From positions 2,624,001 through 2,688,000 of the forward strand of contig OZ243961.1 of assembly GCA_965214605.1 (NCBI GenBank): DNA of 64,000 nucleotides, in the 5' to 3' direction. A program made the translations under genes and the position numbers. Below, piece after piece: positions 43,795 to 47,876 of this stretch (its first letter is position 1; every line of letters begins with the position of its first letter). The notes below the pieces were generated by a model. That model did no database searches and was not told where the DNA came from. It saw only the letters and a program-made list of their open reading frames with translations. Source of the DNA: an uncultured Candidatus Binatia bacterium. GTDB lineage: Bacteria > Desulfobacterota > Binatia > Bin18.

Positions 43795-44511
43795 TTAATG
43801 AACCCGATACGCCACCAGGCGTGTCACGCTTTTTTGTGCCGTGCCTTCGCTGCTGATAGCTTTGACCAAGCCGACTCCTCGGGCGTACCACTCGGTATGA
43901 AGCAGCAAAAATTCCGAGGTTTTTTTGCGCGGGTCCGGCACTATGCTGAGTGTCCGCGTCTCGACTCTGAGACAGTTGCGAAAGGTCCCGGCCGGCACCT
44001 GTATGGCGCTCGGGTCAATCCAGGCGGTGGCCGACGAGTGGTTCTTCCCTCCGCTCGACATGATCCAGGTGTCCAGACTCATGCGCCAGTGTGTTTTTTT
44101 CACAAACGGACTCGGCATGATTTGGTCAAACCCCTGACCCAGCCGGGTATCCCAGACGCGGTCCCCCTCAGAGTCCAGCCACGGATAGCGGTATAAAAAC
44201 CCGTTTTTGTGAAAATAGGCAACCGTGCTTCTGGCCCCAGGGGCGCGAGGGGTAAGCGGTTCGTAGTCCTCGGCAACCACGTAGGACAACTGCCCGAATA
44301 GCGGCCAGTTGTCTTTAACGACGGTCTCGGTCATGTAGTAGTGATAGTCTCCGCCCGAGAACCTCACCTCATGCGTCCAGGTGTTATGCATGGCCAGAGG
44401 GAAGAAGTCGGCCGCCCTGAGCACAGTCGGCTGGGGAGAGAAGAGCGTGGCGAGTGACCAGGCAATGCCGACGGCTGTGGTAAACGCGAGAAGCCCTTTC
44501 CCCATGTCCAT
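43795..44511 (-). CDS. Hypothetical exported protein
   Basis: Signal peptide; FFPL..NTWT, VPAGTFRNC, WYARGVGLVK. Confidence 0.65.
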   Translation of the reverse strand: MDMGKGLLAFTTAVGIAWSLATLFSPQPTVLRAADFFPLAMHNTWTHEVRFSGGDYHYYMTETVVKDNWPLFGQLSYVVAEDYEPLTPRAPGARSTVAYFHKNGFLYRYPWLDSEGDRVWDTRLGQGFDQIMPSPFVKKTHWRMSLDTWIMSSGGKNHSSATAWIDPSAIQVPAGTFRNCLRVETRTLSIVPDPRKKTSEFLLLHTEWYARGVGLVKAISSEGTAQKSVTRLVAYRVH

Positions 44512-44552
44512 ACCATATACTGTTTACCCCTCGGTGACGCAAGCGTTTTCAC

Positions 44553-44579
44553 AAACGGCCGGCTGAGGTGTTCTTCTAA
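44553..44579 (+). promoter_or_regulatory. Candidate ECF-type promoter for a leaderless sigma mRNA
   Basis: AAACGG-N16-TCTAA ending 5 nt before ATG 44585; no SD upstream of the ATG. Confidence 0.45.
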
Positions 44580-44584
44580 TACAG

Positions 44585-45154
44585 ATGGAGCAGCAAACAC
44601 AAGTCCCGCCCTTTCCTGAGTTGGTGGAACGTCACCAGAGGGCGGTATATCGCTATCTCGTGCGCTTTACCCAGGACCCACACGATGCCCAAGATCTGTT
44701 TCAAGAGACGTTTTTACGCGCCTACCGGGCATATACCCGCGCGCAAAAGAGGCAAGAGCGCCGGGGCGAGATGCATTATCGGGCCTGGTTGATGCGGATC
44801 GCTGTAAACGTATCCAAGAACTATGCGCGCGACCGCCAACGCCGGGGCCGGGTGCTCGTGGCTGGGAACTGCGAGCAGGCCAAAGATGCTGCCTCGTGGC
44901 TCGGAACCGGAGCAGACATGGAGGAAACCATGACCGCCAGCGAGACGACCCGGACTTTACTGGCCGTCATTGAGACCCTGCCCTTCCGGCAGCGTGCCGC
45001 TCTCGTCCAACGCCAATTCGAGGGCCTGGACTATCAGGTCATTGCCAATAATCTGGCGTGTTCGCAGGACACCGCGCGGGCTCATGTCTATCAGGCGCTT
45101 CGCAAGTTGCGGCTCGCCCTCGCTCGGCGGGACACCGACGCCAAGGAGGACTAG
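44585..45154 (+). CDS. ECF RNA polymerase sigma factor
   Basis: Region 2 DAQDLFQETFLRAY, AWLMRIAVN; region 4 LPFRQR...IANNLACSQDTARAHVYQA. Confidence 0.92.
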   Translation: MEQQTQVPPFPELVERHQRAVYRYLVRFTQDPHDAQDLFQETFLRAYRAYTRAQKRQERRGEMHYRAWLMRIAVNVSKNYARDRQRRGRVLVAGNCEQAKDAASWLGTGADMEETMTASETTRTLLAVIETLPFRQRAALVQRQFEGLDYQVIANNLACSQDTARAHVYQALRKLRLALARRDTDAKED

Positions 45155-45157
45155 GCT

Positions 45158-46180
45158 ATGACAAAACCATGCGGATTTTCAGAACGCCACCTTATTGCCG
45201 AGGCGTTCGGTGAGGCCAAGGCTGAGCTGACTCAACAGGTGGGCAGGCATGTGGCCGGCTGTTCTTCGTGTACCGAGCTGCTCGAACAGTATCGGACGCT
45301 GCGCGCCCGCTTACGGGACTGGCCGCCGCCCGATCCCGCCCAAGAGGCCGAGGGCCTTTGGCGCGCCCGGCAGGCGCTTGAGGCGCGGCTGCACGAGGGG
45401 CAGCGTCCGCGGCTGCGCGTCGAGCTGTGGCACTCTCCGGTCGGAGATATTTTGCTTGGGGCGACCCACAAAGGGGTGGTTTTTGTTGAGTTCAAGCGCC
45501 CCCACCAATCGTCAGCCCAGCTCGCGCGCTTAGAGCACGACCTGAGGCCTGAGCAGGCCGGGCCGGATACCGCTGCCTTCATCCAACAGCTCGACGAGTA
45601 TTTTGCCGGAACACGTCGCACGTTTGACTGGACGCTGGACGACCGTTTGATGCGCAGCGACTTTCAGCGTCGGGTGCTGCGGGCCACAGCCGCCATTCCC
45701 TACGGCACGGTCATGAGCTATCAAGGCCTCGCCGATATCATTGGACAACCCACAGCGGTCCGCGCTGTTGCCCAAGCGCTGCGGCACAACCCGGTTCCTA
45801 TCCATATTCCGTGTCATCGGGTGTTGGGGAGTGATGGGCGCTTGACCGGCTATGCCGGTAACCTCGTCGATATCAAACGCGATATTCTTGAGACGGAAGG
45901 GATTCCGGTCAGACACACGAGGCGGGGCTTAGCCATTGTCAAGGCCCGGATGTATGTGGGCTGGCGTTCCCGCTCCTGTCTGTGTCGGCCTGACTGTCCG
46001 AGCCTTCAGGGGCAAACCGCTGGCGAACGGGTATTGGTCCCCTCTCGGACGCGCGCCCGTGAACTCGGCTACGAGCCCTGCTCCCGGTGTCATCCCGACC
46101 TGTACCCCTTGGAGGCGGCGGAACTGCCCGCGTCCCCGTCCACCCTGGGCGTAAGGCGGCAGATTGGCGCTGAGCCCTAG
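45158..46180 (+). CDS. Fusion of zf-HC2 anti-sigma-like domain, O6-methylguanine-DNA methyltransferase and Ada-type Zn domain
   Basis: HVAGCSSC (HxxxCxxC); IPYGTVMSY, IPCHRVLGSDGRLTGY; CRPDC...GYEPCSRCHP. Confidence 0.85.
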   Translation: MTKPCGFSERHLIAEAFGEAKAELTQQVGRHVAGCSSCTELLEQYRTLRARLRDWPPPDPAQEAEGLWRARQALEARLHEGQRPRLRVELWHSPVGDILLGATHKGVVFVEFKRPHQSSAQLARLEHDLRPEQAGPDTAAFIQQLDEYFAGTRRTFDWTLDDRLMRSDFQRRVLRATAAIPYGTVMSYQGLADIIGQPTAVRAVAQALRHNPVPIHIPCHRVLGSDGRLTGYAGNLVDIKRDILETEGIPVRHTRRGLAIVKARMYVGWRSRSCLCRPDCPSLQGQTAGERVLVPSRTRARELGYEPCSRCHPDLYPLEAAELPASPSTLGVRRQIGAEP

Positions 46181-46184
46181 CCCT

Positions 46185-46517
46185 ATGGCTGGCCATCTTC
46201 CCGCCTTTTATGCCGCGGTCTACCGTCTGGTCGCCCGCGTTCCTAGGGGCAAAGTGGTGACCTATGGGCAGATAGCCGCTCTGCTTGGAGCACCGCGCGC
46301 GCCGCGGGCGGTCGGGACAGCCCTGCGCCACCTGCCTCCCCCGCTCTCGCGCACCGTTCCCTGGCAACGGGTCATTAACGCCTCGGGCGGCATCAGCATA
46401 CGCGGGGATTTCATTCGGGCCGAACAGCAACGCTGGCTGCTCGAAGACGAGGGCATCGAGTTCGGTCGCCACGGCAAGGTTGATCTCGACAAGTATCGCT
46501 GGGCAGGTCCCAAATGA
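46185..46517 (+). CDS. Alkyltransferase-like (ATL) protein
   Basis: VPRGKVVTYGQIA, RAVG, VPWQRVINASG (Trp replaces the catalytic Cys). Confidence 0.88.
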   Translation: MAGHLPAFYAAVYRLVARVPRGKVVTYGQIAALLGAPRAPRAVGTALRHLPPPLSRTVPWQRVINASGGISIRGDFIRAEQQRWLLEDEGIEFGRHGKVDLDKYRWAGPK

Positions 46518-46556
46518 TGGAGACCGCCCAAGTGGAAGACACCGCCCTGAGAAGCC

Positions 46557-47876
46557 TCAGCACAGGCCGTGCAGTCGCCCCGCCTCCTCCTTCAGCTCAT
46601 CCCGGAAGTCCGGATGGGCGACGGCGCTCAACTCCCGAGCTCGCTCTCGCAGGCTCTTTCCGCACAGGGTCGCAATCCCGTACTCGGTCACCACAAAGTC
46701 AACAAACGCGCGGGGTGTCGTCACCACCGTCCCTGGTGCCAGGGTTGGCACGATGCGGGAAATACGACGGCCGTCGAGCAATGAACTTGAGGGCAGGGCA
46801 ATAATAGATTTGCTGCCGGCCAAGCTGGCGGCGACGCAGAAGGCGGTCTGTCCCCCCGTTCCGGTAAACTGCTGGGGGCCGATCGACTCGGAAGCGACCT
46901 GGCCGGTCAGGTCAATGCTGAGCGCGTTGTTGATCGCCGTAAAGTGGGGATCTTGGCATAGCAGACGGATGTCGTCGGTATAATTGAAGTCGTACAGTTC
47001 AAAGACGGGGTTGCCGTCAATGAAGTCCAACTCTTCAGGGCTGAGCATGGGATGAAAGCCGGTCCCCACGACTATTCCGGTATGGCGCGTTTTGTTTTTC
47101 CCGGTCAGCACCCCGGCCTGGATGAGGCCAATCACCCCGGGCGGGATAATTTCGGTCTGCATCCCCAGATCATTCTTGCCGTACATATAGGCAGGCAAAG
47201 GACTCGTCATATCACCGGCTCCGATTTGAATTGTCTCGCCATCCTGAATCAGCTCATTGACGATGGACATGCAGATCGTGTCGATCGCGTCCTGTTTTTC
47301 CTGGCTGTAGACTTCCGGACTGATCGTTGGCGGGCCGATGGTTGGCGGGCGTTCCACACAGCGGTCGATGGCGGAGATATGGATATAATTCTCGCCGCCG
47401 GTCCGAATAAAGCTCGGATCAATTTCGGCGATGACCCGGTCGGCCCGTTGGGCCATCAGCGGTGACATGCCGACGCTGGTACCGTAGCTGCAGTAGCCGT
47501 GCCGGTCTGGGGGCGACACGCTGACCATATACACATCAAGGGCGTCAAGGCCGTGGGGCAAGGACTCGGCCCGGAAACACGAGACCGGAATATAGTCCAT
47601 CCCGCCTTTGTGCATCAGGCCCCGCTCGCGACGGCTCAAGTACCAAGACTCCAGTCGAAAGAAGTCCGTTATGCCGGGAATATCCCAGTTATAGAAAGAG
47701 ATCAGCGTGTTTAAACACAGCCCGCGTAACGCTTCTTTTTGCTCAACCAGGGCCTGACACAGGACAAATGGCGTTGCCTGGATGCCGGCTATGTAGACGG
47801 TGTCGGTCGGTTTAATGAGTGCGATTGCCTGTTGGGGAGTCACGAGTTTGTTGCCGCAGAGAGAGTGCCAGTCCAT
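46557..47876 (-). CDS. Acetyl-CoA hydrolase / 4-hydroxybutyrate CoA-transferase family
   Basis: SPPDRHGYCSYG, IQIGAG, DLTGQVASES, GTGGQ, VVTEYGIA, AHPDFR. Confidence 0.88.
   Translation of the reverse strand: MDWHSLCGNKLVTPQQAIALIKPTDTVYIAGIQATPFVLCQALVEQKEALRGLCLNTLISFYNWDIPGITDFFRLESWYLSRRERGLMHKGGMDYIPVSCFRAESLPHGLDALDVYMVSVSPPDRHGYCSYGTSVGMSPLMAQRADRVIAEIDPSFIRTGGENYIHISAIDRCVERPPTIGPPTISPEVYSQEKQDAIDTICMSIVNELIQDGETIQIGAGDMTSPLPAYMYGKNDLGMQTEIIPPGVIGLIQAGVLTGKNKTRHTGIVVGTGFHPMLSPEELDFIDGNPVFELYDFNYTDDIRLLCQDPHFTAINNALSIDLTGQVASESIGPQQFTGTGGQTAFCVAASLAGSKSIIALPSSSLLDGRRISRIVPTLAPGTVVTTPRAFVDFVVTEYGIATLCGKSLRERARELSAVAHPDFRDELKEEAGRLHGLC

Follow-up and report, generated by a model that had tools for sequence, protein, structure and literature searches.

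A zinc anti-sigma-type domain fused to an O6-alkylguanine-DNA alkyltransferase next to its ECF sigma factor: a candidate sigma-based adaptive response to DNA alkylation in Candidatus Binatia

Can a suicide DNA-repair enzyme serve as the anti-sigma factor of the sigma factor encoded beside it? The question is raised by a three-gene operon in a 64,000-nucleotide stretch of the genome of an uncultured Candidatus Binatia bacterium (contig OZ243961.1, positions 2,624,001 to 2,688,000), hereafter called the window. The operon encodes an extracytoplasmic function (ECF) sigma factor, a fusion of a putative anti-sigma domain with an O6-alkylguanine-DNA alkyltransferase (Ogt or AGT) domain and an Ada-type zinc (Ada-Zn) domain, and an alkyltransferase-like (ATL) protein. 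We propose a sigma/anti-sigma version of the adaptive response, in which methylation of Cys219 of the Ogt domain would destabilise the anti-sigma and free the sigma, an account to which we give slightly better than even credence. The parts of the operon are as follows.

44585..45154, plus strand: ECF sigma factor gene, 189 aa, with regions r2 and r4_2 (Pfam) and a TIGR02937 match; member of the Ogt-coupled clade (clade support 90/95)
45158..46180, plus strand: anti-sigma/Ogt/Ada-Zn fusion gene, 340 aa, the last ~20 aa forming a variable tail
45170..45397, plus strand: zinc anti-sigma domain, aa 5-80 of the fusion, with helices 9-16, 22-34, 36-54 and 60-78 and ligands C5, H31, C35 and C38
45407..45907, plus strand: Ogt domain, aa 84-250, with Cys219 of the PCHR motif (codon at 45812)
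45944..46099, plus strand: Ada-type Zn(Cys)4 domain, aa 263-314, with C276 (equivalent to Ada C38), C280, C308 and C311
46185..46517, plus strand: ATL gene (PWQRV), 110 aa; accessory, in few close lineages only

The gaps between the sigma, fusion and ATL genes are 3 bp and 4 bp. This tight packing and the motifs HVAGCSSC, PCHRV and CRPDC...PCSRC in the fusion and PWQRV in the ATL protein, which the original prediction had pointed out, are all present in the sequence. The ATL gene truly starts at the ATG at 46185, and the open reading frame (ORF) caller instead used an upstream TTG. The sigma factor matches Sigma70_r2 (E 2e-15) and Sigma70_r4_2 (E 1e-10) in Pfam and reaches 90.8 bits against TIGR02937, for which the cut-off is 42.9; it contains regions 2 and 4 only, as expected for an ECF sigma. 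A search with the fusion protein returned 848 homologues at E<=0.001, and the conservation counts given below use the best 120 of them. Its named close relatives belong to Candidatus Binatia. Clusters resembling the full fusion are most frequent in Methylomirabilota and Acidobacteriota and those resembling shorter fusion forms occur in Chloroflexota and Vulcanimicrobiota, both being leads with few taxonomically assigned members. One metagenome-assembled genome record titled Klebsiella pneumoniae (L003:3400-4950) carries a locus near-identical to that of a Deltaproteobacteria record (L002) and is probably mislabelled or mis-binned. A contig from another sample of the same study covers the whole window with 27 substitutions and without gaps, which, together with the conservation among the 120 homologues, rules out an assembly artefact or a chance fusion. 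We conclude that a real and conserved operon probably encodes an anti-sigma factor that is consumed by alkylation.

As for the fusion protein, three Pfam families exceed their cut-offs, namely Methyltransf_1N (E 1e-7), DNA_binding_1 (E 1e-30) and Ada_Zn_binding (E 8e-8). The zf-HC2 family, also named in the original prediction, stays below its cut-off (E 0.043, 14.4 bits against 22.2 needed). Zinc anti-sigma (ZAS) domains are defined by the ligand set C/H-x23-26-HxxxCxxC. The fusion contains C5-x25-H31-x3-C35-x2-C38, with H31, C35 and C38 kept in 119 of the 120 homologues and C5 in 117. The reading of HxxxCxxC as a ZAS mark thus held, with C5 as a fourth ligand that it had missed. The AlphaFold2 model of residues 1-320 (pLDDT 92.8) consists of four N-terminal helices, a complete Ogt domain and a small C-terminal zinc domain. 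The four helices, modelled at pLDDT 76-97, are arranged in the four-helix anti-sigma fold, with modest Z-scores. When we compared the fusion model with 48,161 chains, the best match other than Ogt was the anti-sigma factor RslA (Z 6.8, root-mean-square deviation 3.0, 62 residues aligned), followed by RsiW (5.9) and MucA (5.5), with RskA (the SigK partner), ChrR, PupR and RseA also within Z 4.4-5.9. Methylated N-Ada was among the matches as well (Z 4.5).

Modelling the sigma together with the N-terminal domain, a check suggested with the original prediction, gave a predicted complex of the sigma and the fusion with a median interface score (ipSAE) of 0.71 over three runs, compared with 0.00 for the best control; the mark applied to this score is reached by 116 of 157 solved pairs and by 2 of 215 mismatched pairs. 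The runs share at least 75% of their contacts, with pLDDT 85-86 for the partner. All confident sigma contacts in this model fall within residues 9-78 of the fusion, the Ogt and Ada-Zn domains contributing none; helices 1 and 3 would lie on sigma region 4 and helix 4 on region 2. The 12 residues in closest contact are better conserved (mean 0.89) than the remaining positions of residues 5-80 (0.51). Sequence and model together support a conserved, four-ligand zinc anti-sigma-type domain at the N-terminus, which the model docks on this sigma.

The sigma and its Ogt partner also travel together. In the class to which the bacterium belongs, 76 of 151 genomes matched the fusion at E<=1e-25, and in all of the best 30 loci, this one included, a sigma gene lies directly upstream. 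By partner, these 30 loci comprise 19 ZAS-Ogt-AdaZn fusions, 6 one-helix-Ogt-AdaZn proteins and 5 zinc-less-Ogt proteins. In the reverse test, with the sigma as the only query, the best 80 of 548 metagenome matches were inspected. An Ogt domain came next in 65 of them (one, L077, being broken), 11 showed an N-terminal extension cut by the contig end, recognised with models partly built from these loci, and the remaining 4 left at most 61 nt of contig downstream. The sigma group occurs in at least 48 of the 151 class genomes (22 candidates per genome scored). Of 201 genomes sampled from the phylum, nine gave a sigma match. Four of these belong to the present system; the other five matches, which are weaker, are sister ECFs whose partners are of the membrane type (3 with a visible ZAS motif) and which have no promoter motif of the kind described below. 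At L193, L195, L196 and L206, an Ogt gene, with or without a sigma gene, is followed by an overlapping gene, which we take to encode an EamA-like transporter.

Upstream of the sigma gene we found the two boxes of a predicted, self-driven ECF promoter.

44548..44552, plus strand: -35 box, TTCAC
44568..44572, plus strand: -10 box, GTGTT (group consensus G[G/T]GT[C/T]), 15 nt past the -35 box

The motif TTCAC-N15(16)-G[G/T]GT[C/T] precedes 87 of 105 related loci, compared with 3.1 in mononucleotide shuffles; many of the 105 loci are closely related to one another, and about 30 of them are the set in which the motif was originally noticed. It recurs in 57 of 80 metagenome loci outside its defining set. 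No sigma-70 consensus promoter was detected at 44400-46800. Since the promoter is shared by so many loci, the operon probably drives itself from it, as far as sequence can tell. The sigma and its Ogt partner are thus tightly coupled and have a conserved promoter of their own. The ATG of the sigma gene follows the -10 box by 12 nt here and by 11-12 nt in the loci shown with the sigma as first gene, a distance that suggests a leaderless transcript; the operon mRNA is probably leaderless or nearly so. At some loci (L013, L015-L022; L032, L035; L026/L208) a short ORF (~30 or 60 aa) or a 213-aa gene stands between promoter and sigma. The strict form of the motif occurs once in this genome, at this operon. 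A weight-matrix scan of the genome gave 14 sites above 15 bits, the best of which outside the operon falls inside a coding sequence, presumably RapZ-like.

Conservation of the HxxxCxxC motif, on which the original prediction was staked, is nearly complete among the best homologues and is lost in the zinc-less and one-helix partners. The sigma-4-facing LIA and YR..L residues persist in the zinc-less partners (hhalign E 6e-4 versus 0.5 for the reversed control), and the sigma-2-facing AR...L helix, which corresponds to helix 4, persists in the one-helix partners (E 0.004 versus 0.14). A Chloroflexota-like subclass did no better (E 0.037) than its reversed control (0.047). The model of a zinc-less partner contains three helices and weakly matches RsiW (Z 5.7), MucA (5.0) and RseA (4.3), as well as an unrelated helical chain (5.5). 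Zinc ligands may thus be lost while the pairing of sigma and partner persists. Judged by sequence comparison, the conserved core is the sigma, the sigma-binding helices and the Ogt cysteine; the zinc ligands, the Ada-Zn domain and the ATL protein are optional parts.

The Ogt domain matches 4bhb with Z 19.3 and, in the alignment to it, keeps the catalytic residues Y188, R202, N211, H220, K240 and E247. Residue roles follow general knowledge of AGTs, with those of H146, E172 and Y114 taken from the literature. With a two-subdomain fold, PCHR, the tyrosine, the arginine finger, the asparagine hinge and the His-Glu pair, the domain is a predicted active AGT. C219 is kept in 119 of the 120 homologues and the rest of the catalytic set in 119-120. 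Likewise, no partner class has lost PCHR or the catalytic residues around it (82-84 of 84), and the active site is present in every complete partner seen, except for the broken gene at L077 and a PSHR variant (P0127). On the metagenome contig with L077 (3010-3590), the Ogt at +1 ends before PCHR, either as a true lesion or as an assembly error.

The Ada-Zn domain shows a different pattern. Its four cysteines, C276, C280, C308 and C311, align with C38, C42, C69 and C72 of Ada and are kept in 119-120 of the 120 homologues. Among 118 close triple fusions, the equivalent of T34 is mostly D, that of R45 is L in 117, that of R67 is Q, A, V or T, that of K70 is D in 102, and that of R71 is mostly V; the copy in the window retains only the R71 equivalent of T34, R45, R67 and R71. 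By comparison, each of 29 canonical Ada domains has T34, R67 and R71, with R45 present in 27; all 34 one-helix partners have T/S34, R67 and K/R70. The median net charge of the domain is +1 in the triple-fusion class versus +5 in canonical Ada. The domain is missing from 5 of the best 30 class loci and from further coupled loci. We found no other Ada-Zn protein in this genome, which has a second, plain ogt elsewhere. Of 35 genomes with a Zn-bearing partner, 3 also encode a canonical Ada-Zn protein, compared with 9 of 13 with an Ogt-only partner and 54 of 103 without the system; nearly all of the 35 genomes belong to two families, and coordinates served to assign some of the class labels (e.g., G027). 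An Ada-type zinc switch as the conserved element is not supported: the domain is missing in many members and has lost Ada residues, and the Ogt site is common to all classes.

How could consumption of the enzyme be read out by the sigma? In the resting state, the N-terminal domain of the fusion would clamp the sigma between its regions 2 and 4, as modelled. A single, irreversible alkyl transfer to cysteine is the established chemistry of AGTs, and the Ogt domain would move the alkyl group from O6-alkylguanine to Cys219 once and for good. By analogy with other AGTs, this alkylation may open or destabilise the fusion, and the sigma would be let go directly or after proteolysis, with unfolding, proteolysis or a movement of helix 4 as the presumed link between Cys219 and the interface. 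The free sigma would then transcribe its own operon from the conserved promoter. Fresh repair protein, here also ATL, would be made, and new fusion would recapture the sigma once the lesions are cleared. The overall logic would be a consumption-sensed feedback, and using up the repair enzyme probably switches on its own replacement. Precedents exist: methylation of the PCHR cysteine, Cys267, acts as the switch in Cada2, where C267A is dead and C267G constitutive (PMC10957082), and alkylation opens and destabilises AGTs, the melting point of the Sulfolobus enzyme falling by 20-35 °C (PMC10779285). Also in favour, alkB, a second ogt, a tag-like gene or a free-standing Ada-Zn gene is present in related operons of group ECF122. 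In this account the Ada-Zn domain of the triple-fusion class is an add-on, possibly a phosphotriester acceptor or second trigger, rather than the conserved switch. The original prediction had the right type of switch, built from sigma and anti-sigma, and put too much weight on the Ada-Zn domain and the ATL protein.

Several observations weigh against the proposed release by Cys219 methylation. The anti-sigma fold Z-scores (4-7) fall within the range of chance helical matches, and the modelled complex may pass by its resemblance to solved ZAS-sigma pairs, in which case it shows likeness, not binding. The model is also without confident contacts between Ogt and sigma, which leaves the route from Cys219 to release unexplained. 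Eight loci of one Ogt-only subclass carry no motif within 450 nt, and no repair regulon beyond the operon was apparent at the best non-operon site and five more that were inspected, one of them from a looser pattern scan. No member of the AlkB family was found in this genome. The canonical Ada-Zn regulators in 9 of the 13 Ogt-only genomes indicate that the system is not always an Ada replacement, and the counts of canonical Ada-Zn proteins given above hint that the fused zinc domain stands in for Ada phosphotriester repair.

The alternatives differ mainly in which part of the fusion would sense the damage. If the trigger were of the Ada type, repair of methylphosphotriesters would methylate Cys276 of the C-terminal zinc domain and release the sigma. 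The retention of all four cysteines, the scarcity of canonical Ada beside Zn-bearing partners (with the bias toward two families noted above) and the T34, R67 and K70 kept in one-helix and ECF203-like partners would fit such a trigger. We nevertheless regard it as quite unlikely, for many coupled loci have no Ada-Zn domain, the five Ada residues are mostly replaced and the charge is reduced in the triple-fusion class, and the zinc domain lies at the far end from the sigma-binding helices without a confident contact in the model. An ordinary ZAS switch, with the repair domains as cargo, would free the sigma when the zinc thiolates are oxidised or directly alkylated or when zinc is lost, a mode for which RsrA and ChrR are precedents. 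The full C-x25-H-x3-C-x2-C set of the triple-fusion class, the membrane-type ZAS partners of sister ECFs and the fold resemblance to ChrR, RslA and RsiW agree with it. However, partners lacking zinc ligands still go with sigmas of the same clade and with the same promoter, and since those zinc-less partners keep the sigma-facing residues, a redox switch is argued against as the general mechanism; the near-universal Ogt active site, with L077 and P0127 as the exceptions, points the same way. We consider this switch rather unlikely.

The remaining two alternatives keep the pair and change the role of methylation. The fusion could be a stoichiometric inhibitor without a methyl switch, from which binding to damaged DNA or turnover frees some sigma, the Ogt level being held steady or lesions being titrated. 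Translational coupling and a self-promoter suit any negative-feedback pair, and the predicted regulon in this genome is the operon alone. The alkylation-repair genes behind the related ECF122 promoter suggest an inducible response instead, and the strict retention of the reactive cysteine fits repair rather than lesion binding specifically; such a homeostat appears improbable to us. Very unlikely, in our judgement, is a methylated partner that acts as co-activator or chaperone of the sigma, as methylated Cada2 aids RNA polymerase. The positive action of PCHR methylation in Cada2 (PMC10957082) is its precedent. One-helix partners, besides, seem too small for a full anti-sigma clamp. But the N-terminus has an anti-sigma fold, and the modelled interface spans sigma regions 2 and 4, the surfaces that anti-sigmas block. 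We favour alkylation of Cys219 as the event that frees the sigma.

As for the third gene, the ATL protein finds its best PDB matches in 2kif, an ATL-type protein from Vibrio, and in Atl1 (3gva), and it has the C-terminal AGT fold with W replacing the active cysteine (PWQRV). In 5 of 31 triple-fusion loci an ATL gene is found no more than 1.5 kb away (directly adjacent in 3), compared with 0 of 36 other loci. Presence in just 5 of 67 loci rules out ATL as a core part of the system. A glyoxalase/VOC-like gene, named from its translation, follows the fusion instead of ATL at L002, L003, L004, L005 and L011. On the other side of the promoter lies one further gene.

43795..44511, minus strand: divergent DUF3108-like gene (weak Pfam match, E 0.003), with a signal-like N-terminus; a neighbour kept in the family

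This gene starts ~36 nt from the -35 box. Of 19 triple-fusion loci (L008-L026), 17 have it upstream, compared with 0 of the 11 other loci, and it probably stands outside the switch.

Known inputs of ECF anti-sigma factors are envelope, redox or metal signals. If our proposal is true, an anti-sigma that counts DNA lesions by its own consumption would be a new type of input, and it would reveal how alkylation repair is induced in lineages that lack Ada or Cada2. It also offers a testable answer to a gap in the ECF classification, which names no regulator for ECF122 or ECF203. Arthrobacter, Rhodococcus, Rubrobacter and Streptomyces are culturable carriers of related operons, and the pair with its rare promoter could serve as a compact reporter for O6-methylating agents.

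How does the system compare with those already described? ECF genes beside ogt genes, which the original prediction rightly said occur elsewhere, are known from the group descriptions of the ECF classification (Casas-Pastor et al., 2021, PMC7826278), where they are catalogued as lacking an anti-sigma. The entry for ECF122, 100% from Actinobacteria, gives a +1 gene for an O6-methylguanine methyltransferase, "no putative AS factors" and the promoter CTCAC/CGTCTAC; that for ECF203 gives a methyltransferase at +1, Ada_Zn_binding and regulation by TetR, without anti-sigma or autoregulation; and ECF202 comprises 35 undescribed proteins of Candidatus phyla (PMC7826278). The passage on ECF122 in a review lists it as uncharacterised (PMC8999054), and sigma-70 and sigma-S are the only sigmas mentioned in the passages of an Ada review (PMC4437013). 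We found no description or test of an Ogt-fused anti-sigma in the literature searched, namely titles and abstract openings, with subscription papers mostly outside it.

In a sigma tree of 47 rows with few outgroups, from which near-duplicates and 22 further rows were left out, this sigma group forms one clade (bootstrap 90, SH-aLRT 95) apart from ECF122-type and ECF203-like sigmas, and three ECF122-type sigmas form a separate clade (100/100). The tree thus speaks against membership in ECF122 or ECF203, which was judged by tree, promoter and described context. A joint origin with ECF122 or ECF203-like sigmas is neither rejected nor shown (p-AU 0.39, 0.32 and 0.18, the first for a sister relation to ECF122). 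The clade could be ECF202. Like ECF122, the system has a methyltransferase gene at +1, and the ECF122 Ogt also carries an N-terminal helix, which matches helix 4 weakly (E 0.003; reversed control 0.014). The ECF122 promoter, found as CTCAC-N17-CGTCTAC at Arthrobacter, Tsukamurella and Rhodococcus ECF122-type loci, is near but not identical to TTCAC-N15-G[G/T]GT[C/T], the spacer here being one base shorter, and the ECF122 loci seen have neither a ZAS nor a fused Ada-Zn domain. Their operons read ogt-sigma-ogt-2OG oxygenase-alkB in Tsukamurella (2OG, 2-oxoglutarate), ogt-sigma-ogt-alkB-like-tag-like in Arthrobacter (last two names from translations) and sigma-ogt-oxygenase-Ada-Zn in Rhodococcus. 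ECF122-type operons also occur inside Binatia (L191, L192, L201; G001, G037, G010), with a sigma, a one-helix Ogt and a 2OG-Fe(II) oxygenase, and a separate Ada-Zn gene in two. With ECF203 the system shares an Ogt at +1 and Ada_Zn_binding in the context, and loci of Streptomyces, Nonomuraea and Rubrobacter, assigned to ECF203 by context, have the same order of Ogt, then Ada-Zn. They differ in having no ZAS, a CAACC-like -35 box and a separate sigma clade, and no TetR or MFS gene lies beside the operon in the window. On one Streptomyces plasmid (L124, NZ_CP107856.1, ~246-268 kb), genes for a FAD/NAD(P)-binding protein, a pcaB-like lyase, an adenylate-forming enzyme, a methyltransferase and metK/metH/metF adjoin sigma/Ada-Ogt/ogt, another ogt and a 2OG-Fe(II) oxygenase. 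This cluster, which we take to resemble CreE/CreD, seems to combine a pathway for a DNA-methylating N-N compound with genes for self-protection; L121 has a similar metK/metF context.

Among the anti-sigma factors, the class I domains of RslA, RsiW and ChrR share the four-ligand motif, the four-helix fold and the modelled position between sigma regions 2 and 4; the sensory part here is a soluble suicide DNA-repair enzyme and not a membrane/periplasmic or cupin domain. E. coli Ada is built with the same pair of modules that accept methyl groups, Zn(Cys)4 and Ogt. As predicted from the letters, their order is reversed here and the AraC-type helix-turn-helix (HTH) is missing, with no HTH_AraC match in Pfam and a protein that stops ~25 aa past C311. 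Because the equivalents of T34, R45, R67 and R71 are lost in the class, the electrostatic DNA-binding switch of Ada is unlikely here. Cada2 (PMC10957082) likewise mounts an adaptive response switched at the PCHR cysteine of a PF01035 domain, but as a single promoter-binding HTH activator, whereas the system described here has a separate sigma as its output and a predicted inhibitor domain joined to its methyltransferase. It is conceivable, though we place it a little below an even chance, that this is a third design of the adaptive response after Ada and Cada2, with a suicide repair enzyme as anti-sigma and each repaired lesion destroying one inhibitor, spread across Binatia, Methylomirabilota, Acidobacteriota, Chloroflexota and others. 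The design would also explain the "anti-sigma-less" ECF122 and ECF203, both actinobacterial groups, through a single sigma-binding helix of the +1 Ogt, the triple fusion being its complete and revealing form. As proposed, the system works like a sigma-based Ada/Cada2 response; it resembles ECF122 and ECF203 and, on the tests made, is a member of neither.

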